A stretch of 64,000 nucleotides of DNA, from NCBI GenBank assembly GCA_965287045.1, contig OZ336903.1, positions 868,001 through 932,000 of the forward strand, given 5' to 3'. The DNA comes from Carcharhinus amblyrhynchos. Taxonomy: Eukaryota. The position numbers and the translations under genes are program-made. Shown here one piece after another: positions 324-62,728 of this stretch; position 1 is the first letter of the stretch; the number at the start of each line of letters is the position of its first letter. The notes under the pieces were generated by a model. That model worked only from the letters and a program-made list of their open reading frames with translations, had not been told where the DNA came from and made no database searches.

Positions 324-668
324 AGATAAGGGCTTCTGACAATCGCCTGGATGAGGTGGTAACCAGCTTGAATAACTTGAGGTATATACTCGATCTTCCA
401 TAGTAATGATAACCAGTTATCATTTGTAGAAAGCTGGGAGAGCGCCCAGGACAAGCTCCTGTCTGTTGAGGTCGCATTTCCGTCTATTGTCCTCAGGTTC
501 TGATCCATCGCTGCAAAATGTCCATCTGTTTTTGTTTAGATTCTGACCTATTGCTCCATCAATCCTATACCCTTTTCTCGGATTCTGATCGTACTTCTCG
601 CTATTCCTGGTGTCTCCAATTCTTTTCAGTGTCGGTGATGATGCTATCCGCGGAGACAGTGCATTCAC
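324..668 (-). pseudogene. Orphan/degenerate first exon of a GPR139/142-like GPCR (GPCR-1); exon 2, if present, would lie left of the window
   Basis: ORF from ATG 508 (MDQNLRTIDGNATSTDRSLSWALSQLSTNDNWLSLLWKIEYIPQVIQAGYHLIQAIVRSP) is paralogous to exon 1 at 48630-48810 and 56987-57251 (VIQAGYYPxLAIIGVP). The N|GTAAG donor seen after the Pro codon in paralogs is replaced by TATCTG. Upstream heptad repeats are frameshifted at about 530. Confidence 0.7.
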
Positions 669-1519
669 TCAGTGAAAGAAGTCCGCCAATAATCAAACGG
701 GGGAAACATCAAGTGACACAGTTACTATCCATTCAGACTAAAGTTACTTCCACACATGAAACAAACATATCCAGCTAACTGCTTTGGACTCAAAATATTT
801 GATTGTCAAAACAAGGTGGAACATTTTACGTGTTCTGAAAAGTGAACTTTGTTTCTCTTGCACGGATTTGAGCGTGCTTTCTGTTTCATTTCAGATTTCC
901 AGCTTCCACAGCAGTTTGCTTCGATGAAAGCATTTATCTCGCCTGCATCAGAATTGTTTTGGTTTCTTGGGGAAGAATTCCTGGAAACTGTGGAGTGACT
1001 GGCCATAGCTTTTAAATGTGTCAGAGATATTCGAGTGCTGCCATCGGACTGGAGTGTTCTCAGTATCAGACCTGTCTTTAAAGTGACGGGGAGACAGATG
1101 AATCCTGATGCTGCCATGATGTTGGCAAAATGACTATGAAAATTGATGTGTATTTAAATTGTACACTGTGGGCAGAAGAGTTGGCATCTTCTAAAGATTT
1201 GAAATTTGCAAGATCCAAGAGACATGGTTGTGCTACTGAGAGACCATGTCTTGCACACACGATGTAGTACTACGATGTGTGTCCATGAGAGTTCCGTCTG
1301 AATTTTCGGTAGGATGGAGGACCCGGCACCTCTAACTTTGTCATTCAAGTTTTATTGTCTAGATTTGCTTTGTTTATTACTCACATTATTTGCAGTTCTC
1401 GCTGGCTGAGTTTTCCCACTGTCTTTCCTGATCTCTCCCTCTTTTCTCAGCCATAGTTGTCTTTTCTTTGATCGTGATTTTACGTGAAGGTATCCTTGCT
1501 CACAAGCGATTGTCTTAGG

Positions 1520-2335
1520 CAAATCTAATGTCAAAGTGAACCTTTCATTTTACATTCATTGAGAACCAGATTGGTGAAAAGACAATGGGGGACCAGAAAG
1601 TAGCCGAGCAGCTAAATAAATAATGTGTCAACCCTCAAAGTCAACATCCTAAAATGCAAACAAAAATGTGTGGGGAACTCGTGGAAGGTAATGAATACAA
1701 TAATTATCAACAAAAAAAAGTGCCAAGGAAAGTAATGGATCTAAATAATGGATAAGACAGCTGGAATTAACGTGTTGCACCATAGAATAGTGAAACAAGG
1801 AGCAACAGAGATAGGGGAAACGCTTGTCATTCTTTTTCCAATAATCCTTTACTTCTAGGAACATTTCAAAGGAATTTTAAACTGTCCTTCTTCAACAACA
1901 GAGGAGGAAAGAAACAGCGAATGGTGTTGAGACTGACATCAGTATATGAAAAAAGTGTTATTTTCCATCATGAAGGATCAAATAGCAAAGCATGTAGAAA
2001 TGTATAATGTGTCCAAGTAGTCAGTTAGGATTCGTGAAGAGGCAGACAATATTACTCGAATTCTTTGAGGCGGTACTCAGTTGCATAAATGAAGGGGAAC
2101 CAGACCGTCAATTTCCAAAAAACGCAACAAACGGTACTGAATGAAAAGCTACTTAATACTACATAAAAAACTAAGATGTTGGGTTAGTATATTAGTTTGC
2201 AAAAAACATTGACTGACTGACAAAATACAGTGATTTTGGAAAATAGAATCATTTTCAGGATGCAAAACTCTAACAACTGGCGTACCACAGTGATACGTGC
2301 AGGGTCACAATCTTTGACATCATACATTGATCACT
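1520..2335 (+). mobile_element. Decayed CR1-type LINE RT fragment
   Basis: Degenerate remnants of the QxGF..LLEFFE RT region, with many stops. Confidence 0.6.
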
Positions 2336-2467
2336 ATTATTCCAACAGGACATCCCAGCAGGCCCGATCCCTGTAACCCTAAGCATTTACCACGCTATTC
2401 CCGTCATCTGCACTCCTTGGAGCAGACATCAAGACACAAGTGAGAATGGCCTACCAACCTGACTGGC

Positions 2468-3180
2468 ACATAGAATATAGAACATAGAACAACTACAGCA
2501 CAAACAGGCCCTTCGGCCCACCAGTTGCACCGATCATATCCATACCTACCAGGCCTATCTGTAACTCTCAATCCCATTAAATGTCATGTCCTCATCTAGA
2601 AGTCTGTTAAAAGACCCCAGCGAATTCGCCTCTACCACCACTAACGGCAGCGGATTCCACCAACTCACCTCCCTCTGAGTGAAAAACTTACCCGTGACAT
2701 CTCCTCTGTATTTGCTTCCCAGCACCTTAAACCTGTGTCCGCTCGTAGCGACCATTTCAGCCCTGGGAAATGGCCTCCGAGAATCCATCCTATTTATACC
2801 TCTCAACATTTTATAAACCTCTATCAGGTCGCCTCTCAACCTTCATCTCTCCAGGGAGAAGAGACCTTGTTCCCTCAACCTGTCTTCATAAGGCATGCCT
2901 CCCAATCCAGGCAACATCCTTGTAAATCTACCCTGCACCCTCTCAATAGCTTCCACATCCTTCCTGTAGTGAGGTGACCAGAACTGCGCACAGTACTCCA
3001 AGTGGGGTCTGACCAGGGTCTTATAAAGTTGCAGCGTTACCTCCCGACTCCTAAATTCAATCCCTCGATTAATGAAGGCCAGTACACCATACGCCTTCTT
3101 GACCACACCCTCCACCTGCGAGGCCGATTTAGACGTCCTATGGACCTCGACCCCAAGGTCCTTCTGCTCCTCAACACTTC
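2468..3180 (-). mobile_element. CR1/HER1-type LINE 3' end with microsatellite tail
   Basis: ORFs LYKTLVRPHLEYCAQFWSP and RGDLIEVYKM..FFTQR; (CATAGAA)n tail at about 2468-2490. Confidence 0.9.
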
Positions 3181-4253
3181 TCCGAGTATCTTAGGAATGT
3201 GGGGAAAAGCTGGAAGGAACCGTCAGGGACACAGGGAGAATGTGTAAAATCCACACAGACAATAACTTAACCCACAGTGGAACCCGGGTTCCTGGAGCAC
3301 TATGGCAGACAATAGGAAGTGTGTGATCAGTCCCTGTATGAGACATGACTTTATTGTTCCACACTAAATTCATTTGACAATTAAACATATCTTTCATTTT
3401 TTTCTTTTCGCCAAAGTTCTGGGGATGCATGCTCCCTTTTTGGCATTCATGCACGAGAACAGCCAGATACCATTTAAATATAACATTCTGCAGCTATTCT
3501 TTGTCTATGTCACACTCCATTTTCGATTCCACACGTCCAAGTAAACAACTTCACCCTTTCCTACATCATGACCCTGCTGTAGGATGTTTCCCACTGACAC
3601 ATGCCTCTCTCTCCACATTTCCTCATGTCTCCTCTTGATATATTTCTTCCAGATCTTTATACCACCGGCGAATCCATCCCTACTGCCTTCATTGACAGAT
3701 TCTCTCTGGATAAACGTGTACAGTGAGAATGTGAATGTCACAAAATGGAGAAAAAAAAAGCCCAGTGTGTTAGTAGATGAATGAACAGTAAGATGGTTAA
3801 ACACAGGACTCTCTGCAACTTGGAATGTTCCAGCTGTTCAGCAGAAGATGCAGCATAAGATGTGGGTCAGGCTGAGCTGTGTGTGCTGAGTTGGGTGTGG
3901 TGGCAGACACAATGCACCTAACACCGGTACAACTGCAGATGTGACAGATGTTGCACAGTGGAAAATGAACAAATTTGAGCGAATGCAGCTTCAGGTTAAC
4001 ACACATGAGAAATGACGTGAACTGAATTTCCAACTTAAAAACAAGCGGAAAATAGTTCAGAACAACAGGGACTTAACACAGGTGGCGTCATCTGTTTGTT
4101 CAAAGCATTAAAAAAAGACTGAATAATGTTGTAACTTCAATACCCGGTGGACATGCCACAGAGTATAAGTTAGAGACTTTCTTCAAACAAGTGAAAGTTT
4201 CTCAAAGACAGATTTCCTTTAGTACAGAGAGGCAGAGCAATTCACGTCAAAAA

Positions 4254-4320
4254 ATGCATCTTCCAAGACAAGTGGCTCAGAAAATATTCTATACGATCAT
4301 TGCTGTCATTGGTGTCCCTG
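4254..4320 (+). CDS. GPR139/142-like GPCR-2, exon 1 (MHLPRQVAQKIFYTIIAVIGVP)
   Basis: ATG at 4254, 67 nt (phase 1), donor G|GTAAGT at 4321. Encodes the first half of TM1, matching paralogous exon ends. Confidence 0.85.
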
Positions 4321-6454
4321 GTAAGTCATAAAACAATTGGTATTGTGAGAATCGATGCGTGAACCTGAGCTGATTTTAATCTGTGTAATGTGCCACATGC
4401 TGTTTAAAGTGTTACACGCAGATCTAGTGTTGACCATTGTACAGATATTTGTGATCTTCCCACAATCACAATCCCGAATTCTGGTAGCCACACGGAAAAT
4501 CAATCCATGGCCACAATATCGATCAAGTAAAAAGGGATCATATTTTCAGCCTCGCAGTGGTTACTGTTGAATGAGGCAGCAGACCAGGGGAGGTAATGGT
4601 TTCTGAGGGAAGGACATAACACTGATATCTGGGGTTGCAAATTAGATTGTCACTAACTGGAGCGGAACACCTTAGCACGGTGACCATGGACAATTTTGGC
4701 TGTCCGTCACTAAGAAATTATGCTGACTGTGGCTGTTGGAGAATTGATCTTGGAACAGGAAGAGGGCATTCACGGTTTCCCAGTGCTTAATATGGTCACA
4801 AATAATCTGAATTTGTCGCAATTCGAAATTACTCCGCTCCCACACGAACCCTTTAACTGTTTATACCCCAAAATACATCGATTCAACTCAGAATTGAATA
4901 TGATGAATGTCAGACTTGCAATGGCTTTATTAGACAGAGTGTACAGACAGGTGGCTTTCTATGATGGGAGAAACATATTTTCTTCATCCCAGAATACAAA
5001 AATAAACCACATTTCTTTTCAATTCTGGCCTCCGTCTGTAGTCTCCCTTCGAAGAGTTACCTCTTTGTATCCAACCTTTCAAATTCCTTCAAGGTCTTAA
5101 CATTATTGAGGTAAATAGTGTTGATGCTGAAAAAAAAAACAAACTTTGCATCAACAAGTGGAATACCTCAACCAGTCTGGCAGCTGGGAGAACGGAAATA
5201 CGGAGTCAAGATTGCAGTTTTCCATTAACTGTGGAAATTGAGGATTGACAGCGGGAGCAAGGGCTGCAGGAGAAGCTATCAGAGAGATGATAGTTGCAGA
5301 GCCTGTTTCCGGGCAATTGGACTACCTGGAAATAGTGGTGAGAGGAATCCAGAACTCTGTGTAAATGAATCAATTACTCTCATCGAAGGCATTTTCGGAG
5401 TAAAGTGGTTGATGATGGAATTTGCGAAGAGATGAAGCCCGAGCAGGTGGTTAGACAATTGTGTTATTGTCTTTCAGTGTTCTTAGTATTACTGAAATTA
5501 ACTACTACAGAAAAGTCAATCATTCATATTTCTAATGATATCGTAGGAAAAAAAAACTATTTAATTGAAATGGGTTTCAATATTACAGAAGTTTTTTTTT
5601 CTCATATTTTTAGAAGTATTAACATTCTGAAACGTTATGGATATCACATTTATTCATGGTCAACCATTTGTTGTATTAGTTGTTTATTTAAAAATAGATA
5701 ACTGAAATTACATATTTTTTAAATAATTGCATTTATTATTAGCGGAGTTAAAGTGATAAACCTAAAGGATAGTAGCCAGCAGAAGCAGCAGCTCTGGAAT
5801 TGGCCACTATAATCTCAGAGATAATTTGCCACATTCAATGTACTTTCCCAGCAAAGGGAGAGGCCGAGGGAACAATTACAAAGAAAAGAACAACCCAGCA
5901 ATGGAAACAGGCCCTTCGGCCCAACGAGCCCTCGCTGCCATCTTAACAAAGCATTTTCCTGCATCTACCTTGACCCGTGTGTATGCGTATGGTTACAGAA
6001 TGCACTGGGTACCGGAGAAGACATGGATGAAGGACAAGAAGAGAAGGAACGAGGAGCAGGGAAAAAAAATGACGGCTGCATACAATAAGAGAGCATCACA
6101 GTCTTTTTTTTTGTGTGAAGGAGGTGATTTACCATCAATCAGTGGTTAACATTCCCTTTAAGAACGACAGAATGTGAATCCCAAGTCAACAAAACTTATC
6201 TATCAGACCGCTTACGGGTCTTTTGCATTCTCAGTTTGAAATAGTTTCTGCGAATCTTTCTCTCTCTCTCACGCTGCGCCCCTCACTTTCGGTTTAGGAA
6301 GGCCTTTAAGTTTCAGTTTATGATCACCTTTTCAAGGACAATTGGAATTTCACAACAAGGTTTGGCCTTATCAAAAGGTGCCAAAGACATGAAATAAGAT
6401 GCTAATAATAGTTAATGTATTATTTCCATTCTGTGTTCCCTTCTTTCTCTATAG

Positions 6455-7341
6455 TTAATTTAATGGCGATTCTGGTGCTGTTCCGGGGCAAGTGTGGCCT
6501 TTCCAGCTGCAGCACTCGCTACCTGGTGGCCATGGCAGCGGGCGATCTGATGGTCATTATTGTTGATGTAATATTGAGGCGATTCCGTTTCTTTTATTAT
6601 CCACGGTGTTTCCTGGACTTGACCCCTGTGTGCAGTGTTCTCTTAACGTTTCGCTCAGCAGCCATAGACTGTTCTGTCTGGTTCACCGTCATGTTCACAT
6701 TTGACCGATTTGTCGCCATTGGATCCAGGAAGCTGAAATCAAAATTATGTACCAAAAAAACTGCGACTGTCGTTCTTGCAACAACAACCATTCTTTTATG
6801 TGTTAAAAACGTGCCTCGTTACTTTAGATATGAACCTACCAAAGTAATCAACAATGTATCATGGTACTGTCGAAATAAGAGAATCTACTTCACTGACCCG
6901 AGATGGCAGGGATTCGCTCAGTTTGCAATAGTGTCAAACCCATTGATCCCATTGGCTGCAATTCTGATGTTTAACACACTGATTTTCCGCCGCATATTTA
7001 TGGCCAGCCGAGCCCGCAAGTCATTGAAGGGTCAGAACAAGGGAGACAAACACCGTGACCCAGAGATGGAGAGTAGAAAGAAATCTGTTACTTTACTCTT
7101 TGCCATCTCCTGCAACTTCATAATTCTTTGGTTATTGTATGTTTTATATATCATGGATGTGCCAGCACTATTTTTCCGTGGTAACGATTATGATATATTT
7201 GAGACAGTTGCCTACATGCTGCGGGATTTGAGCTGCTGCACAAACACCTTCATTTATGTAGCGACTCAATCCAAGTTCAGAGCTGAGCTAAATAGAATGC
7301 TTAAATGTCCACTTATATGGATTGCTCAGTACATTGATTGA
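6455..7341 (+). CDS. GPR139/142-like GPCR-2, exon 2 (spliced protein ~317 aa)
   Basis: Polypyrimidine tract plus AG at 6453-6454. 7TM class A features: RGKCGLS loop, MAAGDL (TM2), DCSVWFTV..TFDRF (TM3), DPEMESR (ICL3), SCCTNTFIY (TM7). Stop TGA at 7341; AATAAA at 7785-7790. Confidence 0.9.
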
Positions 7342-7524
7342 AACAACAGATAATTAACCCTATTATCTAGTGTACAAAAGAGAGGGAAAGGGTGTTCCTG
7401 TGAAAGCAAAATGATGAAATTCCAGACAGCCAGGAGAAGGTGTAACGGCAGCAGGAGGAGAAACAAAGTTTCTGTGGGGATGAACTGCCTGAGAAACATG
7501 TGAACGGCGCAGGGAAGCTGAGAG

Positions 7525-7678
7525 NNNNNNNNNNNNNNNNNNNNNNNNNNNNNNNNNNNNNNNNNNNNNNNNNNNNNNNNNNNNNNNNNNNNNNNNNNNN
7601 NNNNNNNNNNNNNNNNNNNNNNNNNNNNNNNNNNNNNNNNNNNNNNNNNNNNNNNNNNNNNNNNNNNNNNNNNNNNNN
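7525..7678. other. Assembly gap
   Basis: N run. Confidence 1.
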
Positions 7679-7954
7679 GAATGAGTGGCCAACTCCATGG
7701 GAAATGCAGCGCATATCAAATCAGAAGTATAATGTGTCATTGGCAGAATACACTATTTTTGGGCCAGATCCAGTATATATTTTAAATAAAATGCACTGTG
7801 TTTAAGCGTTGCATTATGATGCGATTGTTAAAAAATCTATATCTTCTGGAGCAATAAGCTGAGCATAAAATGTTAAGTTCACCTCCAAAATTAGACAGAA
7901 TCTCTGACCGGCTAATTCAGGAAATAAACGTCTTTCGAAAAATTCATTAACTGA

Positions 7955-8703
7955 GACCGTCAATTTATAAGTACGTAAATACAAGAAGTGTTGGTAAAAC
8001 TGAACAATTTAAACGCAATTTTCCAAGGGGAGATTAAGAATGGAATGTTTAAATGTAGACCCACCTCACTCACGCTGTTTTCAGCCTGCGAACGTGCTGT
8101 ATTCTTCTATGTGAGGTCCACAACTTATTTTCAATAAGGTCGTTGAAATGTGAGTTGCAGATTCGTTGGTCTGTTGGCGACCTCTAGCTGTAGGGGAGAA
8201 AACATTAACTGTGTGGTATCAGGAACTATCTCCTCCTAGATCATGCCTACCAATGACTAACAGCAAGCAATCCATCCAGAAACCCTATTCTTCCTGATAT
8301 TATTCGGATCTAAACAAGCAAACGCCAAAAAACTCGCCTTCCACCAAACATGCACAACCCTCTACTAATCTATCCCAATTTGCACAGCACTCAGAAAGCT
8401 TGGCATCATCCATGAAAAATTGGCCAACTTGACTATGTGCCGTCGATCAAATAGATTCTCCACTCATCTCGTCCTATTGCCTGCAGTGTGCAGCGTTTAA
8501 AAGATGCACTGCAGCAAATCAACATGGCCACTTCCACAACACAGTCCAAACCGAGAAATCTACCAGATCGATGGACAAATTTGTAGAGATATCGGGAGAT
8601 CATCACAAATCATTATCTCTCCCAGCCACTCACCATCCTGACATGGGGAAAAAAGTGCCGTTCTTACACTACTGCTCGGGTAAAATGATGGAACAGCCCT
8701 CCC
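7955..8703 (+). repeat. Left arm of ~750-bp inverted duplication
   Basis: Reverse-complement match along its length to 10445-11205, e.g. aaacgcaattttccaaggggagattaagaa vs ttcttaatctccccttggaaaattgcgttt. Confidence 0.9.
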
Positions 8704-8977
8704 GAACAGGACCTGCACCATATGGACTGCAGCAGTTCAAGGAACCAGTTCATAACAGATTCTCTATGGCAGTTAGTGATAGACAGTGTATGGCAGCTGA
8801 TGCAAGAACGCCGTCAATTGAACCTGGGTCCCTGGAGCGGTGAGGCAGCAGTGCTAACTACTGTGCCACCCTTAATAACAATACAAATGTTATTGTTCTT
8901 ATTAATAATATTATCCATCATTATTATTGTCCACGTCATTACCATCATCAAGATGATTGAACAATATTAATTTTCTC

Positions 8978-9268
8978 AGGGCGGTACAGTGGCACTGCGG
9001 CCTCCCAGCACCAGGGATCCAGAGTTAATTGCGGTCCAGGGTGACCGTGTAGGGTTTACACATCGTCCCGTTTTTGCGTGAGGTCCCTGTCACTTTGCAG
9101 TTTTCATCCAACAGTGCGGGTTAGGTTGAATGGTCTTGCTAAATTGTCCCTTGGTGTCGGACAGATTGGCGGGTTAAATATGTGTCACAGGGATGGGGCG
9201 CAGGTAGGATTGTTGTCGGGCAAGCTCGATGGGCCGAATCGTCTCTTTCTACACTGTCGTGATTCTAT
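8978..9268 (+). mobile_element. tRNA-derived SINE (HE1-like)
   Basis: gggcggtacagtggc head, central body and LINE-derived tail ending gattctatg. Confidence 0.75.
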
Positions 9269-9329
9269 GATTATTGTTTCAATTATACTGCTGCTAATAT
9301 TACTATTAATCATAAAATCATGGGTGATC

Positions 9330-10290
9330 TGGACCCATTACTCCTGTTCTGATAAATGTCCTGTTCCAATAAGGAAGAATTGTATTCCTTTCTGATCAGT
9401 CAATAGACTGTGGTCCACACAACAACCATCACAAGCTCCGTTATCTGAAGTCACATCCAGACCCATTATCGTCACCGTTAGCACCATGTCAGTGACCCAT
9501 TTCACCCCTTTCCATAACACCTTTACCTCAAATAATAATTCCCACTTGTTCAAGCTTCATGTCAACAGCAAATACATCTTTGTGTCCCAGAAGCTTTCAG
9601 CATTTGCAAACATTTCGCTTCTCCCAGTTCTCAGTGTTTAATTCTGTGTACATTAACACCACTGTCTTTCATGTAAATCTTTCCATGCAAGATTCCTGGA
9701 GTTAAGTTGCTCTCTTGCCTGTGCTGTCTTTTAATTTTCCAGGCACCAACATATCTTGCTGTTTAAAACAATCATTTTCTCTTTTCTTTCACTGTTCCAA
9801 CTCCGTGCTGACTGATCACAGCGAATATTGGGGAGAATGGTTTTGCACTGCACAAGGAAAATCTTCATCAACCGGGACAGTTTCTAAAATCGGCAGACAG
9901 AGGTGAAATTCACTCTGACATTTGGACAGTTGCTGCTGGAGGGAAGGATGGATGTGTTAGAGCCACTGCAGTGTAGGCTGCTAATAAATTCATAGTGTTG
10001 TTAGAAAGCGATTGGATTGATTTGGGTCCATCAACATTGACAGAATGGTGATATGGATGAGTTTCAATGTTCTGGTTTTGACAGATCAGCAGAGGCTCAG
10101 AATGAATCAAACATTCTTGAAGCTCTGTTACTGGAAATGGTGAAAAATGTGAGCCACTCTGGAAGATAAGTGAAATGTGAATAAATATTATTTCATTTGG
10201 AAATGTATATGTCGCCCAGCAACGCCTTTGAACTGGATTTTGATTCCATCTGACGGTGTTCTTGTATTGGCTGGCATACACTGTCTTTCG
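9330..10290 (-). mobile_element. Possible highly decayed Gypsy-type integrase remnant
   Basis: Minus-strand peptides PFPVTELQECL..THPYHHSVN..KSIQSL (like PYHPxSNGxAERxVQ) and KWVTDMV...CVDH (like the integrase C-terminus) occur in the expected order; heavily mutated. Confidence 0.35.
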
Positions 10291-10444
10291 CTAACTGCCA
10301 TTGAGAATCTGTTATGAAATGTTTTCTTAAACTGCTGCAGTCTATATGGTGCAGGTCATGCTGGGGCCGGGGGGAGGGGTGTGGGGGTGGGGCGGGGGGC
10401 GGGGAACTGCGGGGGCGGAGGGGGGGGGGGGCGGCGGTGGTGGA

Positions 10445-11205
10445 ACTGCGGGGGGCTGTTCCATCATTGTCCCCGAGCAGCAGTGTAAGAAAGGCAATAT
10501 TTTTCCATGTCAGGATGGTGAGTGGCTACGAGAGATATTGATTTGTGATGATGTCCCGATATCTCTACAAATTTGCCCATCCAGCTGGTAGATTTCGCGT
10601 CTTCGACTGTGTTGTGGAAGTGACCATGTTGCTTTGCTGCAGTGCATCTTTTAAACGCTGCACACTACAGGCAATGGGACGGGATGAGTGGAGAATATAT
10701 TTGATCGACGGCTCGTCACTCAAGCTGGCCAATTTTTCATAGATGATGCCAAGCTCTCTGATTGCTGTGCACATTGGTTTGGATTCGGTCGAGGGTTCTG
10801 CCTGTTTGGTGGACGGCAAGTTTTATTTTTGGCGTTTGCTTGGCTTGTTTAGATCCGAATAATATCAGGAAGAATAGGGTTTCTGGATGGATTGCTTGCT
10901 GTTAGTTACTGGCAGTAATGATCCAGGAGGAGATAGTTCCTGATACCACGCAGTTAATGTTTTGTTCCCAACAGCTAGAGGCCGTCACTACACAAACGAA
11001 CCTGCAACTCACTTTTCAACTATTTTAATAAAAATAAGTTGTTGACCACACATAGAGGAATAAAACACATTCACCGGCAGAAAACAGCGCGAGTGAGGTG
11101 GGTCGACATTTAAACATTCCTTTCTTAATCTCCCCTTGGAAAATTGCGTTTAAATTGTTCAATTTTACCAACACTTCTTGTATTTATGTACTGATAAAAT
11201 GACGG
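10445..11205 (-). repeat. Right arm of ~750-bp inverted duplication
   Basis: Same match as the left arm; the inner boundary abuts a G-tract at 10360-10455. Confidence 0.9.
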
Positions 11206-11533
11206 ACACAGCGAATGAATATTTCTGTTTTAATGACCGTAACAACCGAAGGGTCTTCAGAATTGTCGGGCGATAGTGGAGGTGCCTACCTGGAGGAAAT
11301 GGAAACGAATGGATTACTGGATATAAAGTTTGATGAATTAAAATGAAGAAGAAATTTGGAAATCTGACTACCATCTTCACATATCCCGGCGCCCTCAATG
11401 GTCCCGAGTGCGAGCGGTAGCGCTGGCATACAACATCCTGTTGTATTTAGTTGCTGGGGAAATGTTGTGGACCCTCCCCCTCACTTCAGTGACAATCCAG
11501 ATTACAGTAAATGAAGATGACGGAAACAAAACA

Positions 11534-11559
11534 TTTATTTATCATTTCTAACCTTTATT
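11534..11559 (-). terminator. Two polyadenylation signals (AATAAA) of the SRCR gene
   Basis: TTTATT on + at 11534-11539 and 11554-11559, about 350 nt past the stop. Confidence 0.5.
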
Positions 11560-11902
11560 TAATGGCATAAGAAAGAAAGTTTTTACAAAATAATTTTCAA
11601 ATGCACTTGACAAATATTGCATCAAATCATGAGTGACTCTGTTCCACAATGCAATGCGATGTAACAGCTTTAATATGGACAGTGCAATGCTCGAAATACA
11701 TTCTAAGTTGTTTTCCATTGTTCATTGAATGGAAAGTATCTATTTTCACGCAAAGCGAAGAGAGAAATCATAATTCAGCAAGCACAACATGAAGTAATGT
11801 CCAATTAATTTTAAACAACAGCAACATTTATATCTGGAGTTACAGTATATTCAACATGGCGATATTTGTGGAAAAGTGAAGGGGCGTCACCTTTAATTTA
11901 AG

Positions 11903-11949
11903 TCATATGTCTGAGGACGTCACATCCTGTATTTGTTGATGTCGATGAT
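11903..11949 (-). CDS. SRCR receptor exon 15, terminal (DHRHQQIQDVTSSDI*)
   Basis: Strong acceptor ttttattttaccgtttcAG, TGA at 11905-11903, AATAAA hexamers downstream. Confidence 0.65.
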
Positions 11950-12919
11950 CTGAAACGGTAAAATAAAAATATATAAGAATTCCAACGATTTCCACAATCA
12001 GGTCAACACTTTAAAAGTACTTGTGTTATATTCCAGTTCAACTGTCAGTTTCTTTCTATCAAATCCACACTGCACATTCTCTCTGATACTTTCAATGTAA
12101 TGTACCACTGAAAATACTGCAGGAAATCACAAAGCAGAAACCATGTGGGACAGGTCGCATCCCTATACTGCGGCCCTCCCATTGGAAAATGTCATAAAGT
12201 ACGGTTTAACATTATAATGTATACTTCGGAGATGAATGGTCGCTGCCCAATGGTGGTTAAGAGCCCGTGCGTATGCCATAGACAGCATTATTTTTCACAG
12301 CTGTCATAAAAGGAACGCATAAGACGGGATTAATGCGGATCTCGTGAGTACTGTGGGGGTAAAGAAACTTTTCCTGAAACTTGGGCTGAAAATATCTGTT
12401 TTGTTTCACACAATTCGCGGCAGGAACTCAAACCAAATGCCAAATTATTATTTGATTGGCTGGAATTCACTTCAAACCAGAGCGATTATATTCCACACAA
12501 GAGGGCGGGAGGCTGCAGTAATATTCGGAAGTGATAATCAACTCAGAATGTTCTCTGAGCATTGGGATTCCATGAAGGACATCAGAATGTGACCGGGATT
12601 TCCTGGTAATATCCATGAAATTCCAACTTTCAACCTGAAGTCAAGTGTGTTCCTTAAATTAGTGATCAACTAAACATTGAACTTTTGATGGGGTGAATTT
12701 TAATGGTAGGTTGAAAACAAGTTTTCACAGCCCCTCAGCTGGAACTAGTTCATTAGAAAGCAGGATTAATGTAGCTTCAGAAGCTATGGGTCAAAAACAG
12801 AAAGCTCCTTCACTGTGACCTTGTCTGTAGCTTCCTGAAACATGGAGTCACAAGGACTGAGCTTGATGGAATGATGTCATTTAACTTAAAGGTTAATTTC
12901 AATCCAAATGTCTAATGTA

Positions 12920-13395
12920 AAGGGTAATTTAAATCTAAATGATGATTACAAGCATGCGGGGATAATTTTAGGAGGAAAGTCTAAATAGTTTTGCGCTACG
13001 TGCATTTGGTATTCAGAAGAATGAGAGGTGATCTCATTGAAACATAGGATTGTAATGGGGATTGACAAGGTAAACGCTGAGAGGATGCCGTCCCCATTAA
13101 AGATTCTAGCGCCAGACTGAGGAGTCTCAGTATTAAGGGACACCAACATAAGACTGAAATTTACAGGATTTTCTCCTCTGAGTGGGTGGTGAATCTTGGC
13201 ACAGAGAGCTGTGGAGACAGAGTCCCTGTGCACAGTTAAGGCTGAGATAGGCAGATTGTTGATGAATAAATGAATCAAGGGTGACGGGGAAGGGGGAAGA
13301 GAGTCAATATGAAGAATGTCTGATCAGTCATGATCCGGTGAAGGAGTGAACCAGTCTCGAGGGGCTGAACGGCCTAAGCATGTTGCAATTTCTTA
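12920..13395 (+). mobile_element. CR1-type LINE 3' fragment
   Basis: agaatgagaggtgatctcattgaaac (RGDLIE) and typical 3' UTR. Confidence 0.75.
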
Positions 13396-13461
13396 TTAAA
13401 TTATTTTATACTGATCCCAATCGACATTCTACGAAGCGGAACAATGAATGATTTATCTCAC

Positions 13462-13593
13462 CCAGAGTGCCGCCGTCACCGCTAGAACTCTCCGAAGTGA
13501 AGATACCGTCAGGGCTCTGGTTCAGCAGCAAGTGCCCACTCTGGGAGTCAATGGTTTCAGTCTCAGCGTCGTCATAGTCTGTCAAAGCAGGAG
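13462..13593 (-). CDS. SRCR receptor exon 14, cytoplasmic (PALTDYDDAETETIDSQ...GGTL)
   Basis: In-frame acceptor at 13593 (alternative at 13578), donor G|GTGAGA; DYDDAE motif. Confidence 0.7.
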
Positions 13594-14157
13594 CTTAGAG
13601 GTAATAGCATTTGATTATAGCAATATATAGCTGAGAGATAATAACAATTAATTAGTAATGAATGACAGTTAGAATCCTACCCTTAAATGTCTATTACCTC
13701 AACAATTATGGGACAGAAAGAAGTGTGTCTCTCATGGTGTGGAAATCACTGAGTTTGGGCGCGAAGAGTTATTAGGCTAAATTTTGTCGTAGCATTTTCA
13801 AAATTTCGTTTGATATAATAACCTTGCTAATAATTCACCAATCTCATACACCCACACACATTTCACAGCCCAAAATGGCTACTGGGAAATGCTAGAACTT
13901 TTTTTAAAAAAGTTAAAATTCTTTTTTTTTCGGAAGAAAGCAAACTTCATTTCAATTGCTGCGAAGTACCATAAAACATTGTTTCAGGCTCAGAGGTTCT
14001 GGAACTGAAATTATTCTAAAATGTCTGAGCTACTTGGCGCTGTCATTTCATGGTGTGCACGTCATTATGTACACGTTTGGAGATTTCAGAAGCTATTTCA
14101 GATATTACAGAGTGAGAAGACTCGGAAGGAAATGGTAGGATGTGAACTTCGACCTAC

Positions 14158-14268
14158 CCGGAACACAGGAGGAATCCACTGCAGGATATTCTGATCCAGG
14201 ATCCGTGTCTCCCAAACTGTGACTGGTGTAATATTCAATCTGATCGAAGGAGTCAATGCTTGAAGAAA
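14158..14268 (-). CDS. SRCR receptor exon 13, cytoplasmic (SSSIDSFDQIEYYTSHSLGDTDPGSEYPAVDSSCVP)
   Basis: Acceptor gaccAG, donor G|GTAGGT, 111 nt phase 1-1, open. Confidence 0.7.
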
Positions 14269-15239
14269 CTGGTCAGCAAAAAATAATTGGTTATTAGCAA
14301 AATGTTTGCGGTTGATTCATTACGTTCTTATGATGATCAAGAACGATTCAGAAAGTCAAAGTCGATATCGCAACAATGTCAACGCCACTGTGACAATGTC
14401 CTGACATTTGATCGTGGCGCCAGTTTGGGAGAACAGTGAACAGACTGACTGCAGTGGTTTAAGGGGAAGAGCCATGGCCACATAACTGGGGCAACTATGG
14501 ATGGATTAATGATGTCACTCTGGTTCTGAACAGTCCAATGTGTGAGATATCAGTGAACAGAAAATAATGTAAAGAACAAATCTGTTCCGGCTGGGTCAGA
14601 GGACAAGGGTTTACTGATACAGAATCCTTTCCCACTGCCATATTGTTTTCCTGCCCTTTATCTCCAGAGATGAAAATCGATCAGGAGTGAAAATAACTCA
14701 TGGAGGTCGCAGGCAAGACACAAGAAAGAGCAAAAATAGTCTAAATTGGAACATTATTTTCGTTCTGTTCAGTCATTCTGGATAAATCTCGGTCCTCAGT
14801 ACTGCTAACATTCTTGAAAATTATTTTCAAACCTCTCCTGTTTCCTGTAGCCTTTCAGTAACATCATGCTCAGACACATACAATCCACTCCACTATCTGG
14901 TTGATTTTTATCTTCACGTTTTGCTACGTGTTCATTGTATATAAACGCCACATACTTTGTGGATGCTGGCAATCGCAAAAAAAAAACAGAAAAAGCAGAC
15001 AAAGTCAGCCAGGCTGGCATGAAGAAAAGTCATAAAAACGCACTGTTGAACTTGTTTCTCTCTCCAGCCCTTCTGAGATGGCCAACATTTCCTTCTCTTT
15101 TTTTTCATTAAAAATGAACCTTGTGTTTGTTTTGGTTTCACTGATACATTTGTCAGATACATTTTGCATCGAGTCATTTTTGGACCACAGCATTTTAGTA
15201 CATTTTATGAGGTATTTTACTGATATTCGCTAAATATTT

Positions 15240-15417
15240 TCATGAAGCTGGTTGATGGGTTTTTGATAAGAGAGGGGATTAAGGGTTATGGGGAGAGGGC
15301 CGGAAAGTGGAACTGAGCCACGACAGATCAGCCATGATCTTATTGAATGGCGGGGCAGGCTCGAAGGGCCAGATGGCCTACTCCTGCTCCTATTTCTTAT
15401 GTTCTCATGTTCTTATT
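15240..15417 (+). mobile_element. Young 5'-truncated CR1-type LINE tail (copy 1)
   Basis: Nearly identical to 25665-25935 and 49730-49872; (TTCTTATG)n-type tail. Confidence 0.85.
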
Positions 15418-17495
15418 TCTTTCTCACTGTGTTTTAAATTATCTCTTGCTTTTGTTGACGTTCTTTTTTCAATCGTATGTCTTATAATAGCAAGTGAGTT
15501 AACGTTTTCTTATAATTTGCTTCAGTACTTGTCAGACCAGCAAAATTTACTACCACTTTTAAAATGTGTTTGGAAACATTAAGATATTGTAAGAAATCAT
15601 AACCATGTGATCCCAGTACCCATTTGTGTAGACCACCAGTTCTAATCTTCTTCCGACAATATAAACATTCACCCCATAAATTAATAGATTATTACAGCAA
15701 ACTGGTTCTAATTTTAAGATCGCCCCATGATTCTGTACACAGGGAGCAAACACTTGCATCCAATGTAATTTACTGCCTAACTGATGAATCCTCCTTAGTG
15801 ATGCAGTTTTGAAGTGCATTCACTATTGCAACGTATAAACGCAGAAAACGTTTTGGGTCTTGCACTATTCCAATGCAAATGACAAGAAAGAAAGAAACAA
15901 ACAAAAACGCAGGAACTTAATTTTGCCAATTTTCTCAAGGGGTAAGTATTTTTCAGGTCTACCCTCAATAGAATATTGGCCATGGATGATAGTTCCAATG
16001 AAATGTCATGTCACCAATAGTACAACACCTTCTCAGCACTGCAAATCGTGTCAGACTTGATTTCCTGGACCGAATTCTGGAATGGAACTTGGACCTGGAA
16101 ACATCTGAGTCAGAGGCATGATTGTCATGGACTAAAATGGAGCTGACCGTTATATTCTGTTCCCATCCGTTTGTGTATGAGTTTGTTGTTTCACACACAA
16201 ATTTTGGACAACTGGAAGAATGCATTTATGGTGTTAATCATAATTTGCCAGTTGCCATTTGTACGAATTTCATGCTGTTATTATCTGAGAAAGGTCATGA
16301 AAGGTGTACTGATTGTTCTTTATAATTTTTGACATGCAGATATATTTTTCTCACTCTGTCGGAATTGGATTAATGTTCCTGCTAATAATGCTCAGCAGAT
16401 TGATGTATATTTTCCTAACCACGTTCCTTTTTCCTTTCTAATCATGGTGTCAATATTTGTTCTCCATCAGTAGTGTAGTATTACACTCCTTCGTAGTGAT
16501 TCGGTGTAAAATTGGAATGGTCCGTCTGCTAGAATTTTCCTTTCTTTGCAAATGCATGGATGAAAAAAAAAGATCCTAACGCGTTGGGTGCAAATGGCTT
16601 TTGTTTTTGCAAATCTACCATCCCTATTCAAATCTTCTGCCATCACATGTTTAAGTGTTATCATGATACAAAGTGCAGAAAAAAATCTTTAATATTCCTG
16701 CCATTGCATTATTTTGCAATTAAAACAGTGCTGGACAAACACATATGAAGTTATTCTGAATTGCCAAACTTATTTCTCCCTTCATTGGATATCGTGTTAA
16801 TTTATTTAACAACCAATGATTTTACTGTTTTAATGAACTTTGTCATCTTAACCAATTGTGTTCTCTCTCCTTCCTTTTTCGTCACCTCCCTTATACTGGT
16901 TTGCTACCCACAAAAAACAACACCCCCACCACCCTCCACCCCTCCCCCCCCCGCCACCTCCCCGCCCACACGCGCTATCCTCCTTGTTCTTGTTGTGTAA
17001 TGTCTTCCATTCGTTTTTTTTTCCTGCTTTTCAATGAAAATATATGTTTTCCTCACGTCGGCTGAAAATCATTTTAAAACTTTAAAGTTAAGCAAAAAAA
17101 AACAACCTTAATGTACTCCAGACATTTGCCCAGACAGCAGTGATCCTGTAAATCGTATCAGCAGTAACGTGTTCGATTGATTTATGTTCAATCAAACAGT
17201 GTATCCATGGTGTTTTAAAACTGAACCATGATGGACGAAAGGAGTAGCCTATTTGGAATTTGGAAACAACTAATCTGCTCGCTATTTTTACACAGGTGAC
17301 AAAAAACCCTCTTCAGCAATAAAGGAGATTGGAAATCTAATCAAATCCGTTCATCCTCTAAAACCTATTGAGCTTTGTGTCATTTCTCCTTTCCATTTGA
17401 AGGATGAGGAAATGGTGTCATCAACTGACAGTTAAGGGAGGGAAACCTGAAGCTTTCAGTGTAGCTTGGGTTTGAAATGAAATGAAAATACAAAC

Positions 17496-17603
17496 CTGAA
17501 GCACGGAACTCAGTGGAAACCTTGCCAGGCGGAATGTCATCTATTTCTTCATAAATGGCTTGGTACAAACCAGAAGGTGGATCCCTGACGCCAGTTGAAG
17601 GCC
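17496..17603 (-). CDS. SRCR receptor exon 12, cytoplasmic (LYQAIYEEIDD)
   Basis: NAGNAG acceptor (cagcAG), donor G|GTTTGT, 108 nt phase 1-1; YEEI motif. Confidence 0.8.
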
Positions 17604-18650
17604 CTGCTGCAGGGGGATTGAGACTGTTAGTATATTGCTAGATTTACAATTAGAAATATCGTTCCTCATTAGCATTAATTTCACATCTCACTATTTGCTG
17701 AGGCCAGATTCGAACTAGGCCTGGAGAGTTTTTGTCTTGCTACCCTGGGTCATTAATAAAGTGATGATACCACTGTCTCCATCACAAGGGTAACTGATCC
17801 ATTTTCAGCCCATGTAGGTCGGCAAGTAAAATATCGATCACGAATACTCGGTGTGAGTTCAGAGGGAGGCTGTAGTTGTGTTTATCTGTTCAAAACGAAT
17901 GGTACACAAGGCAATATTTAACTACATTCCTTAATCATTTTTTTTAACATCGAACAGATCGCCAACTTGTCACCGCACCAAACACGATCGAACAACATTC
18001 TCTCCCGCTCCCACCGCCTGGCATTATGATTTGGAAAGACTTTGCAGCATTATTTTTTATTATGTTGTTGGTCTGTAGTGTTGGGACTGAAAACTAAATC
18101 TTCTGTCTCAGAGAGAGGGGCGCTACTCACTGAGCTTCCAGCATTGAACCTGCAGTTCTCCAGTGTTGGCTGCGATGGGATGCAGAATTTGCACCGATGG
18201 TTGTGGAACTTAATTTAAAAAGAATCACATCACATCTCAAAATGGATTGAATTCAATTAGAGAGGTTAACACTGGACATAAATCGGAAAGCATAGGGTTG
18301 CAACCAATAGTAAATTGAAATTAAATATAAGTTACGAAATATTGACTAAAATCAGAGTGCAAATTGTTTGAATTTAAATTTTTGATCTATTCTTAGAAAA
18401 AAATGAAGTGTATTTCGAGTCTCGGAGACGAGTGGATAAATCAGGAATATAAATGTGGATAAATCCCTCACTTAAATGTTATATTTCTGTCTTTGCCAAG
18501 CAGCTTGGAAGAAACCATTGGCTGGATAATTTGTTTCTCACATGGACAGGAGACATTCTGCGGGAACCAGCGTAGAAGAGAATCCCCTCGGGGGTTTGGA
18601 ACAGTTATTGATGTTTCACTGTAAGTTCAGGGATATGATTCGAGCCTTAC

Positions 18651-18767
18651 CTTTCATTGTTGATTTCCTCCTCATTACTGCCAAAAGGGCGATTAATTCA
18701 CAGATCAACAGGACACCGAGTGATATGCAGATCACCAGAGGGATGGAAGTGTTTTCACCATCATGAC
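18651..18767 (-). CDS. SRCR receptor exon 11, transmembrane (IPLVICISLGVLLICELIALLAVM-RRK)
   Basis: 117 nt phase 1-1; hydrophobic run followed by a basic stop-transfer; donor G|GTAAGG. Confidence 0.85.
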
Positions 18768-18933
18768 CTAATGAAATGTTCAAGAAAGTATTTTCAGGTC
18801 AAATTCCATATTGTTTCTTAATGCTTACATGATTATCAATTGACAAAACTAAGCCAATGTTAACATGTTCCAGTTGTGCATCTTAACATAAAATTAACAT
18901 AAGTAGTTAATACTATTTATTAATAAGAAATAC

Positions 18934-18960
18934 CTGAAGGTGTTGGTGATAAATCCGTAC
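18934..18960 (-). CDS. SRCR receptor exon 10, stalk micro-exon TDLSPTPS
   Basis: Acceptor cttcatcAG, donor G|GTATTT, 27 nt phase 1-1, S/T/P-rich. Confidence 0.65.
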
Positions 18961-19008
18961 CTGATGAAGATATGGGAAACAAGACATAATTATTTGGGTT
19001 GATGGTTA

Positions 19009-19467
<459 letters not shown>

Positions 19468-19562
19468 TCAAATAGGAGATTTTATTATTGTTATTATTCT
19501 TCTTATTCTTCTTATTATTATTAGTGATACTGTGAATTTTGTTGTTGTTGTTGTGAAAATAC

Positions 19563-19619
19563 CTGATTCTGGTTTGCAGCCGTTTTGATTTTCCTGATCT
19601 TCATTTGGTTTATTTCCCC
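19563..19619 (-). CDS. SRCR receptor exon 8, interdomain linker GNKPNEDQENQNGCKPES
   Basis: Acceptor caacAG, donor G|GTATTT, 57 nt phase 1-1, open frame. Confidence 0.7.
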
Positions 19620-56986: not shown

Positions 56987-57251
56987 ATGGAAAATAATCT
57001 CAGTTCAGTTGACTGGAATGCTGCATCGATGGGAGAGAACAGAACAACAACAATGGAAAATGTTGGAACAACAGGTCAGACTCCGAGGACATCGGATCAC
57101 AGAGTAATAACAATGGACAAGAGCTTATCTGTGGCAATTTTCCAACTTTCTACTTTTTATAATTGGATGGCACTAAAACATCGGATCCTTTGGACACTGC
57201 ATGTGATTCAGGCTGGTTACTATCCCCTCCTCGCTATAATTGGAGTACCTG
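56987..57251 (+). CDS. GPR139/142-like GPCR-4, exon 1 (heptad-repeat N-terminus)
   Basis: MENNLSS VDWNAAS MGENRTT TMENVGT TGQTPRT SDHRVIT MDKSLSV...VIQAGYYPLLAIIGVP, donor G|GTAAGT at 57252. Start codon choice is uncertain: several in-frame ATGs, and the frame is open back to 56867. Confidence 0.8.
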
Positions 57252-59930: not shown

Positions 59931-60124
59931 AAAACAAAATATGCAGACCTAGAGTGACAAGGGACAAGGCACAATCCGCGCCACATATTTGGATGAAATT
60001 AGGCATCTCCAATTAGAACAATCCAAAAAAAAATCAGTTTTACATCCTATTGCATTGCAATCACTGTCATTATTTTTTGATCATGAAATGTGAATGTTCC
60101 TGACCGCACGAGCATTTATAGACT

Positions 60125-60560
60125 TCGGAACAAGAACACAAGAAGAGAAGCAGGAATAGGCCTCCAAGCCCCCAAGTTAGACCTTCCATTCAGTTCAATC
60201 ATGATATATCCCAGCTTCAATCCCCTCTCTGTGAAATTTATGTGTAGTCCTCTATTCCTCAATCTGTCAAGTAAATGGCCACCTCCACTTTAAATATTAC
60301 TATTCACCCAGCCCCCACTACCCTTTGGGGCAGGAAATGTTGCAGATTCACCACCGTTTGCGAGAATAAATGTCTACACACCTCAGTTTCAAATGACCTG
60401 CCTTTCTGTTGTAGTTATGTCCCCTTGATCTAGAATTTTCCACCAGTGAAAATATCTCACCATCTGTTTTATCAGTCTGGCTTAAGATGTTATGCTGTAA
60501 TAAATTCGCCCCTTCACTCCTTTCAACTCTAAGGTAAACAAAATCGGATGTTTTTGTCGC
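60125..60560 (-). mobile_element. CR1-type LINE 3' fragment
   Basis: aagaacacaagaagagaagcaggaataggcc is the reverse complement of the family tail. Confidence 0.65.
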
Positions 60561-61802
60561 TCTTGAGGAAATTTAGAGTCAGCCACATTGCTCTGAATCT
60601 GGAGTCACATGTAGATCTGACCAGATAAGGACGACATATTTTCTTCCTTGAAAGACACGAATGAAGCACGTACTGCAACAGGTTCGCTACACTTCTAACA
60701 CACACACACCACTACCTGCTCCATGCATCAACATTCATTGTGGTTACAGCGATCAGAAACCAAACTGCAATGTTCATAACCACACTGTGGCTGCAAATTG
60801 ACTGAATGGCCTTCAATCCAACAGGAAGTAAAACCCTTTCAGACTCCAAATGCTGGTCCACCATCGACAGGTGCAAGTCCACAGTGTGACAGAGCTGTCT
60901 CTAGTGCAGTTCTCACAACACGCAGGTAGTTCTACGCCATCCAGAATAAAAGAAACAGCTCGCGTGTTTTCCACCTCTTCCAACGAATTGTTCTTTCTCT
61001 GCAACTGGCGTGTGCGATGGCATTGTGCACAGCACAGCATGCTCTGCAGAATCTTATCAAATCTCCGAAAAGAAAAAAAAATCTCCTTTCAAATCCGCCG
61101 TTTTCACTATTCACCTGGAGAAAGACTGAAGGGAAATGATAACATCACCATCTCCAGGTTTCCCTCCAAATAACTCTGCTGGCACACTTGAATTCCATCC
61201 ATATATGCAGGTTAATTCGAAATTAGGTCCTCTACGAAATCAAAGTCAGCAGCTTCTCTTTTATGGGCTTAAAATTGTCCAATTAAAATTTAACTATGTC
61301 CAACACAGCTCGGCTAAATGTCAGTTGAATTCATTCCTCAGAATTGAGTGTTGTTATTGGTCACTTAATGTTGAGTTATTCCTGGAAAGGAAGGGAATCA
61401 TTTCAATGATATGAAAAAAAAGTTTGGTAATTTGCCCACGATGCCTTTGGCTGTAGTAATGTTCATATGTTGCGGTTTGTTGCAGACTTTGCTGTCACTT
61501 TTCTTGTCTGCAATTAATTGTTTACATCTCAGGATAAATTAAAACAGCACATTGCTTCCAGAGTCTGTGCTGAGAAAGTTGATGTCGAATGGGTTAGTTG
61601 TTGTCAAATAGGTTTTGTTGATTGGCCGTGCAAAACTGAACCTAGTGTAAGGGGGAGTTGCAGGGTAGATGTGTGGGGTTATGGGAATAGGGCCTGGGTG
61701 GGATTGTGGTCGGTGCAGACTTGATGTGCTGAATAACCTGTACTGAAGGGATTTGTGATTCTATCACTCTATAATATCCTGATTTGTTTCTGCTCTTTCC
61801 AG

Positions 61803-62728
61803 TTAATATGCTGACAATTGGAATACTGTCTCGGGAACGATGTGGTCTCTCCAAATGTGTAACAAACTACCTGATTTCGATGGCAGCCGCTGATCTATTG
61901 GTCGTTTTTTTTGATGTGATATGGAGACAAATTCCAATTATTTATCGGGAGCATTTCAATTTCATCTGGAGCATGCGTATTTGCAACATCCACGCTGTGC
62001 TCCTTTATGCAGTTACTGACTGCTCTGTTTGGTTCACCGTGGCATTCACCTTTGATCGCCTTGTGGCAATTTGTTGCCCTAAGCTGAAAAGTAAATTTTG
62101 CACCGACAGAATGGCAACTATAGTTCTGACTTCAATCACTGTTCTGAGCTGTTGTCTGAACATATTTTGGTATTTTATGTTGTCAAATTCGTATTGGTTG
62201 AGGAATAACCCATGGTTTTGTTTTGTAACATTTGGTGTTATGAATTCTCCTGTCTGGATTGCTGTTGAATTCAGCCATAATATTTTAAACCCCTGCATCC
62301 CTTTTGTTCTGATTTTGCTGTTCAATATTTGCACTGTCAGGCACATTTTAGTGACCAGCAGGTCTCGCAGGAGACTCCGAACTCCGATCAGTGGGAAAAG
62401 TACTAAAGACCCAGAGATGTTGGATCGATGGAAATCCATAATTTTGCTCTTTGCTATCTCAGTGAATTTTATCCTGTTATGGGCAACGATGATGGTATAC
62501 TCTACATGGAGACGGATGTTTTATTTGGTGTATTATGCTGTTTGGATGGATGATTTTGTTCGGGAATTCGGCTTCATGCTTCAGCTCACAAGTTGCTGCA
62601 CAAATACAGGTGTATACGCCGTGACCCAGAGGAAGTTCAGAGAACAGCTGAGGAATGTGCTCAAATACCCGTTTATGGCAGCTGCACGTTGTTTTCAATC
62701 ATGCATATCGTGGGCAAGGAAGCTTTGA
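61803..62728 (+). CDS. GPR139/142-like GPCR-4, exon 2 (spliced protein ~396 aa)
   Basis: Acceptor ctctttccAG|TTAAT. Contains RERCGLSKC, DCSVWFTVAFTFDRL, KDPEM and SCCTNTGVY; stop TGA at 62728. Confidence 0.9.

Follow-up and report, generated by a model that had tools for sequence, protein, structure and literature searches.

The window examined here is a 64,000-nucleotide stretch of the genome of the shark Carcharhinus amblyrhynchos (contig OZ336903.1, positions 868,001 to 932,000 of assembly GCA_965287045.1). It contains three genes, here called A, B and C, for G-protein-coupled receptors (GPCRs) belonging to a family related to GPR139. Six-frame motif searches and tblastn identified exactly three complete exon-2 frames of class A receptors in the window, each belonging to a two-exon gene (Table 1), and all three frames match Pfam 7tm_1 (E 2e-17 to 5e-14). 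In each gene a GT donor follows the ...GVP codons and one further base, and an AG acceptor lies two bases ahead of the N1.50 codon. This places a phase-1 intron in transmembrane segment 1 (TM1), as the initial annotation had read it. The signatures that the annotation had listed, CGLS, DCSVWFTV..DR[F/L], DPEM and SCCTNTxxY, are likewise carried by all three genes, the residue after DR being F, F and L in A, B and C. Pairwise identity among the three is 40-61% and is unevenly distributed. The columns identical in all three make up 3 of 29 in the pocket and 4 of 47 in the loops, as against 60 of 117 in the inner TM half and 27 of 57 in the intracellular loops and helix 8. These gene structures and shared motifs are not due to chance.

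The class A assignment is based on the seven-transmembrane (7TM) fold, the 7tm_1 match, N1.50, D2.50, DR3.50, P5.50, W6.48, Y7.53 and helix 8. An AlphaFold model of gene B has the 7TM layout with helix 8 (pLDDT 87) and confirmed the helix boundaries that we used. The neighbours of this model in a fold search are peptide receptors, with GPR139 in second place, which confirms class A without discriminating among peptide receptors.

The initial annotation had counted four paralogous loci. Three are intact two-exon genes, but the fourth is a lone exon-1 remnant (508-329, minus strand): a GT is missing where the homologous donor would be, and the 100 kb that lie beyond contain no exon 2 on the minus strand. 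The idea of a fourth gene at 324-700 was rejected for this reason. A second lone exon-1 remnant, with a stop, adjoins an intact B-like gene in the 34 kb downstream flank (about window+66150-66400). The first remnant, gene A and an SRCR gene together occupy a segmental duplication unit. Its upstream duplicate is 97-99% identical over the first 19 kb and 80-91% beyond, with a 96% copy of gene A 69.8 kb upstream and a second copy of the exon-1 remnant. Three other open reading frames in the window had no Pfam match. The intron of gene B contains a very high-copy short repeat (48450-48600), and an internally repeated block lies at about 37.2-38.3 kb (window region 37200-39500).

Table 1. Features identified in the window, with positions counted from its first nucleotide
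Feature	Position	Strand	Remarks
Orphan exon-1 remnant, B/C-type receptor	329..508	-	tblastn 47% to gene B exon 1; no splice donor
Gene A exon 1	4254..4320	+	22 codons and phase-1 base; short N-terminus, TM1 start
Gene A exon 2	6455..7341	+	remainder of TM1 through to C-terminus; 317-aa predicted protein
Gene B exon 1	48630..48810	-	60 codons; N-glycosylation sequons
Gene B exon 2	45475..46355	-	predicted protein 353 aa including exon 1
Gene C exon 1	56987..57251	+	88 codons
Gene C exon 2	61803..62728	+	predicted protein 396 aa including exon 1
Segmental duplication unit	1..43067	+	recurs about 70 kb upstream; megablast against flanking 200 kb
Membrane-anchored SRCR gene	18651..27476	-	six single-exon SRCR domains and TM exon; between A and B
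SRCR domain exons	about 27163-27456, 24124-24417, 22150-22434, 20524-20811, 19706-19996, 19102-19395	-	exon frames, splice sites
SRCR gene TM exon	18651-18767	-	exon frames, splice sites

Size and ancestry of the receptor family

The genome searched comprises 2.92 Gb, and its contigs are denoted by C-numbers. A 35-base pattern from TM3 has 2,021 exact matches in it and a tighter 24-base pattern has 890, while the reversed control of each has none, so that the genome contains far more than a few copies. Five protein searches each returned 3,021-3,436 first-look candidates. From the 3,210-3,436 candidates of the searches with gene B, gene A and shark GPR139, 134, 133 and 150 matches were scored, largely at different places. 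We sampled nine cluster regions (1.24 Mb; five near known matches, including the window, and four at round coordinates) and one targeted locus. Two of the four round-coordinate regions are without a receptor. The sample contains 49 scorable exon-2 loci, 39 of them open and 10 broken, and one more that is cut by a region edge. The 35-base pattern recalls 34 of the 39 open loci and 3 of the 10 broken ones. This would put the genome at roughly 2,100 open copies of exon 2 among a total of about 2,600 loci, an estimate that comes from a non-random sample and counts exon 2, with exon 1 checked for part of the copies only.

Dense arrays occur on C41 (14 genes in 180 kb, with all 14 exon-2 frames open) and on C52 (16 loci in 200 kb). 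Gene B itself has 13 copies at 81-100% identity in C34:0.14-2.07 Mb. In C52:564-755 kb (L117-L136) exon 1 contains a 14-residue repeat, which includes an N-glycosylation sequon, about two to four times, and the N-termini of neighbouring genes differ in length with the number of repeats. Clustered paralogues, recent duplicates and broken copies are all present. The expanded chondrichthyan birth-and-death family that the initial annotation had proposed is thus borne out, with about 2,000 copies arranged in clusters and about a fifth of the sampled loci (10/49) broken.

The closest named public proteins are from sharks. Among 2,863 public candidates 1,804 clusters were matched, and 119 of the best 120 of these 1,804 are named 'probable' or 'putative' GPR139, from sharks. 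After one distant row was set aside, 10 of 12 family-range representatives are shark, skate, stingray or chimaera proteins by name, and the other two are Scyliorhinus and Leucoraja rows. The GPR139-like shark receptor family is therefore annotated in databases under the automatic label 'probable GPR139', that is, it is mislabelled and not unseen. Four predicted family proteins of 440-490 aa (P0002, P0003, P0050 and P0128) score above their BLAST identity or match in two stretches, and may be internal duplications or mis-joined gene models.

The label refers to a receptor that the same genome has separately. Human GPR139 is the best PDB sequence match of the family (E 1.6e-9), at an identity of only 20-25%. 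A GPR139-specific pattern finds one locus in the genome (C18), whose identity to named GPR139 proteins is 99% for shark and 93% for ray, and GPR142 is also single (C21). Two more conserved single-copy GPR139-like genes are found on C7 (L089, 106.8 Mb), which groups with an anchovy gene, and on C22 (L162, 47.7 Mb), which is 64% identical to a coelacanth gene. L089 and L162 are orphan GPR139-like subtypes that bony fish have as well. R6.51 is kept in L089 and in the coelacanth relative of L162, but W6.48 is not. A locus at C14:49.87 Mb was rejected as a relative, reads as somatostatin-receptor-like and served as an outgroup.

The closest bony-vertebrate relative found is a gene of amphibians and sturgeon (e.g. 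XP_069092602.1), with one cluster per species (20 amphibian clusters and one from sturgeon; P0239, P0412-P0431). This orphan GPCR too has the database name 'probable GPR139', a mislabel. A word-limited search for it gave 25 matches, none of them from an amniote or teleost, and no separate shark orthologue was found in the genome, where the best match is at 36% and all matches fall inside the family's range. In the accessible text of Rinne et al. 2019 (PMC6504862), fish and coelacanth have three GPR139-like sets, and sharks are not mentioned. The amphibian/sturgeon gene is possibly one of the GPR210A/B sets of that study.

A maximum-likelihood tree was built from 34 rows, after 28 redundant or long-branch rows had been dropped from an earlier 62-row quick-mode tree. 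In it the receptor family is one clade (98/99) whose sister is the amphibian/sturgeon gene (99/98), and both lie inside a GPR139-like clade (100/99). That clade joins GPR139 and GPR142 at 91/85 with four outgroup rows, a grouping that the 62-row quick tree left open, and a GPR142 clade (100/99) excludes the family. Approximately unbiased (AU) tests reject a clade of the family with GPR139 (p 1e-58) and a clade of the family with GPR139 and GPR142 (p 0.013). Given these tests and the separate single orthologues on C18 and C21, co-orthology with GPR139 or GPR142 is rejected. All four family members checked have the TM1 intron at the very base where GPR139, GPR142 and the C7 GPR139-like gene have it, which supports common ancestry with GPR139/142 independently of the tree. 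The initial annotation's term GPR139/142-like is apt in view of the best PDB match and the intron, but does not extend to co-orthology. As judged from tree and intron, the family descends from a GPR139-like ancestor, with the single-copy amphibian/sturgeon gene as sister, and not from GPR139 itself. Within it, subfamilies that are 35-60% identical persist, one of them common to shark and skate (98/96).

The family shares with GPR139 and GPR142 the class A fold, the identical phase-1 intron two bases before N1.50 and the absence of the NPxxY proline. It differs in having cysteines in TM3 and extracellular loop 2 (ECL2), where the aligned GPR139/142 sequences lack a cysteine in TM3, and in consisting of about 2,000 fast-evolving copies, whereas GPR139 is one ultra-conserved gene. 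With the amphibian/sturgeon gene it has in common the DPEM motif and, in the salamander, the pattern of intracellular loop 2. That gene differs from the family in its one conserved cluster per species.

Ligand face and selection

In GPR139, according to Nohr et al. 2017 (PMC5430874), Trp/Phe is held between F3.33, H5.43 and W6.48, with N7.38 and R6.51 as anchors. Among 97 family copies (a set that omits loci L025, L057, L068, L086 and L096, which were not extracted) F3.33 is kept in 8 and H5.43 in 39, but R6.51 and N7.38 in none. W6.48, shared with GPR139/GPR142, is kept in 96. The amphibian sister gene differs from the family at both anchor positions, with N7.38 kept and a basic residue, Lys, at 6.51. 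Because the polar anchors R6.51 and N7.38 are lost, aromatic amino-acid sensing of the GPR139 type by the family would be unlikely.

The variability of the ligand face was measured as the share of the commonest residue among 34 representatives that are <85% identical, with pocket positions taken from class A numbering and cross-checked against the GPR139 alignment. This share is 0.46 in the pocket (29 positions), 0.45 in the loops and 0.60 in the other outer TM positions, as against 0.75 for the inner half of the TM region and 0.70 for the intracellular loops (pocket versus inner TM, p 7e-9; pocket versus other outer TM, p 0.013). The conserved inner face and variable outer face described in the initial annotation are therefore present across the representatives as well as in genes A, B and C.

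Selection was analysed with our own codon model in four subfamilies of 13, 22, 16 and 21 copies, three of these sets having been partly chosen by similarity to a query. The overall ratio of nonsynonymous to synonymous rates (dN/dS) is 0.44, 0.51, 0.35 and 0.69 per subfamily. When the synonymous rate is free per region, the outer and inner faces have dN/dS of 0.65/0.30, 0.65/0.37, 0.37/0.37 and 1.0/0.45, so that selection is not uniformly purifying. The inner face is significantly below 1 in all four subfamilies (twice the log-likelihood difference, 2dL, 27-86). A site mixture with a class of dN/dS>1 is favoured in three of the four subfamilies (2dL 17.5, 35.2 and 83.4), where null simulations, 12 each and without recombination, reach maxima of 1.3, 6.3 and 2.6, and the outer face accounts for 37 of the 47 sites flagged with dN/dS>1. 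Selection is purifying on the inner face and relaxed to positive on the outer one. Positive selection on the outer face is likely but not proven. Three of the four subfamilies thus have the pattern of chemoreceptors, a diversified ligand face with a conserved inner face, subject to the signs of recombination described below.

A largely neutral amplification, in which a few functional receptors lie in duplication-prone regions rich in long interspersed nuclear elements (LINEs) and the outer face is under relaxed selection, could also produce many variable copies. It would account for copies in segmental duplications with unrelated passengers, for the broken loci and, once synonymous rates may differ between regions, for an outer-face dN/dS that approaches 1 but does not clearly exceed it. 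We consider it improbable, given an inner-face dN/dS of 0.30-0.45, the fully open C41 array, the persistence of divergent subfamilies and the positive site tests.

Neighbouring genes and the role of the family

Group B SRCR domains are defined by eight cysteines per domain and one exon per domain. The SRCR gene between genes A and B has group B features, namely one exon per domain, a TM segment and eight cysteines in the last domain, while one other domain has fewer. Pfam SRCR was matched by both of its exons that were scanned, and its signal-peptide and tail exons were not located. Its predicted TM segment (18651-18767) has a glutamate, which is unusual for a single-pass receptor and is possibly a pairing site. 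The initial annotation had called this gene WC1/CD163-like. It is indeed membrane-anchored, and it shares eight-cysteine one-exon domains and a TM exon with receptors of the CD163/WC1/DMBT1 type, but six domains were found in it, and neither its cytoplasmic motifs nor an orthologous relation to CD163 or WC1 could be established. CD163 chains top its PDB list, partly owing to their many repeats.

The last SRCR domain has 23 close copies (85-100%), all within C34:0.17-2.04 Mb. The same span holds 13 B-like receptors, which makes it a co-amplified mixed cluster. The SRCR copies on C34 vary, with six SRCR exons in the window gene and seven to eight in two neighbours, and some are broken; a second SRCR cluster of seven copies lies at C34:8.5-8.8 Mb. 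SRCR exons also occur near family members on C7 and C56. By contrast, 980 kb sampled from eight other receptor cluster regions contain no SRCR exon, and a family-wide SRCR partnership was rejected on this ground. Among the other regions, four consist purely of receptor arrays and LINE fragments, two have C2H2 zinc-finger arrays and one has an NLR gene. The zinc-finger genes are at L170:4118-5068 and L179:2913-3848 (C39 and C40) and the NLR (NACHT) exon is at L205:1731-3491, among the C13 receptors. Translations read by eye revealed fragments like reverse transcriptase of the long terminal repeat type, RNase H and integrase at C48:1.38-1.39 Mb and C9:99.04 Mb, with mostly LINE-type open reading frames around them. 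The most likely reading is that the SRCR gene was carried along as a passenger within a single cluster prone to duplication. Since SRCR is absent from the eight other regions, the linkage reflects a duplication-prone neighbourhood and is weak evidence for the leukocyte role at which the initial annotation had hinted.

Formyl-peptide and Mas-related receptors offer an analogy for an innate-immune repertoire on leukocytes or barrier cells that senses microbial or damage peptides. Such a role would fit the C34 cluster, where receptors are interleaved with SRCR copies, the SRCR exons on C7 and C56, the NLR gene, and the integrin-alpha, Ig or TRIM domains found in 5 of 21 fused family models scanned in other species. 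Positive selection at the ligand face would be consistent with an arms race. In the accessible text of PMC8455134, cartilaginous fish are reported to be without the MAS1-related family. On the other hand, receptor arrays elsewhere are pure or have zinc-finger neighbours, and no PU.1-like sites were found upstream of 23 genes, which is a weak point. In a single-cell supplement on bamboo-shark immune organs (PMC11372145), the markers listed for 12 cell types include no 'receptor 139' row, although its shark marker sheet, which uses NCBI descriptions, has no WC1- or M130-named marker either. This absence speaks mildly against broad expression in leukocytes, as sparse expression or multi-mapping could hide members. 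We regard an immune role as unlikely, though less so than neutral amplification.

Our preferred reading, held with about even confidence, is that this family of some 2,000 genes is a sensory, that is, chemosensory, repertoire. One ancestral GPR139-like receptor would have lost its amino-acid anchors, and tandem and segmental duplication would have amplified copies while others decayed. Selection on the outer face for new specificities would have diversified the pocket and loops, while a common G-protein face was kept. Candidate sites of expression are the nose, taste or solitary chemosensory cells, the skin, the gill and the gut. The receptors are predicted to differ, each from the others, in the external peptide or small molecule that they bind and to signal through the shared G-protein interface, with coupling presumably like that of the Gq-coupled GPR139. 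We infer peptide-like ligands from the position of the branch among peptide receptors and from the retention of the cysteines at 3.25 and in ECL2, which would form the TM3-ECL2 disulfide.

The family resembles the odorant receptor (OR), TAAR, V1R/ORA and V2R families in its clustered birth-and-death evolution, variable pocket and conserved inner face. It differs from them in its place on the peptide-receptor branch, in matching only Pfam 7tm_1 and in its coding intron. Nematodes have expanded the same broad peptide-receptor branch on a large scale in their srw chemoreceptors. GPR139 proteins carry a PF10324 (Srw) listing, as does 16% of one family cluster, but the two expansions arose independently and the three proteins of the window lack PF10324 at E<=0.001. 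In size the family bears comparison with the largest OR repertoire, that of the elephant, for which PMC11979771 quotes 1,948 genes.

Several observations weigh against a chemosensory repertoire. Many copies are on small contigs, and uncollapsed haplotypes may inflate the count. The C48 subfamily has a site-class 2dL of 1.2 and no outer-face excess. With synonymous rates free, no region class is significantly above 1, the best being the extracellular loops at 1.45 (interval 1.0-1.75). A PHI-like test indicates recombination in two of the three positive subfamilies (p 0.012 and 0.010; p 0.15 in the 22-copy set). There are also the SRCR and NLR immune genes among the neighbours. No enrichment of olfactory-promoter-like motifs was found upstream of the 23 genes, a comparison of low power. 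No RNA run was found to contain the queried sequence, which is uninformative either way. In the catshark no GPCR is among the top 50 brain and olfactory-epithelium genes in the accessible part of PMC11979771, as would also be expected for sparsely expressed receptors.

Other regulatory and expression data were neutral. Exon 1 was found for 23 of 37 genes, and ten promoter motifs scanned upstream of these 23 revealed nothing shared across clusters. Four runs aligned to gene B gave genomic-type contigs over the intron and exons, with no splice joint among the rows shown; they are uninformative, and their depths are not copy numbers. Name searches in the displayed parts of supplements found nothing in PMC13188829 and PMC9396271, and orthologue-table rows only in PMC13689627.

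A reproductive recognition repertoire, for sperm, testis, oviduct or pheromone peptides, appears distinctly improbable, the least so favoured of the roles considered; nothing speaks directly against it, but about 2,000 copies are far above the known reproductive GPCR families. It would fit the rapid evolution of the outer face, which is typical of reproductive proteins, and the presence of FMRFamide-receptor-like invertebrate receptors in the wider peptide-receptor branch. Several catshark chemoreceptor genes are reported as testis-enriched in the accessible text of PMC11979771.

A possible chemoreceptor family in cartilaginous fish

Full-text searches, covering listings and abstract starts with subscription journals mostly outside their reach, found no description of the family. 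The accessible text of a survey of tandem clusters in rays (bioRxiv 2025.06.08.657570) mentions SUCNR1 and V2R, among others, but leaves this family unnamed; its supplement may list it. The accessible part of a GPR139 review (PMC12208981) does not mention cartilaginous fish, PMC13100897 has no mention of GPCRs, and PMC11886862 and PMC5818035 have none of GPR139. The receptor repertoire is real, very large and apparently undescribed, and it stems from a branch where none was expected.

Cartilaginous fish are stated to be poor in GPCRs or olfactory receptors in the accessible portions of PMC8455134 and PMC11979771, the latter listing 2 OR and 6 OR-like, 3 ORA, 3 TAAR, 2 TARL and 32 V2R genes in the catshark. 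A family of about 2,000 genes hidden under the label 'probable GPR139' contradicts this description as given there, and about 2,000 mostly open GPCR genes do so whatever the tissue in which they act. The family would rank among the largest vertebrate receptor families known. We tentatively suggest, with somewhat less than even confidence, that a GPR139-like peptide-receptor ancestor, whose amphibian and sturgeon descendant remained a single gene, may have given rise in sharks, rays and chimaeras to a fifth family of vertebrate chemoreceptors, numbering up to about 2,000 genes. If true, it would rival the odorant receptors of the elephant and overturn the view that smell in cartilaginous fish relies on a few dozen receptors. 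The single-copy amphibian sister gene provides a comparison with the ancestral state that is accessible in Xenopus or axolotl, and the question of how sharks smell well with few receptors becomes testable in existing RNA-seq data.

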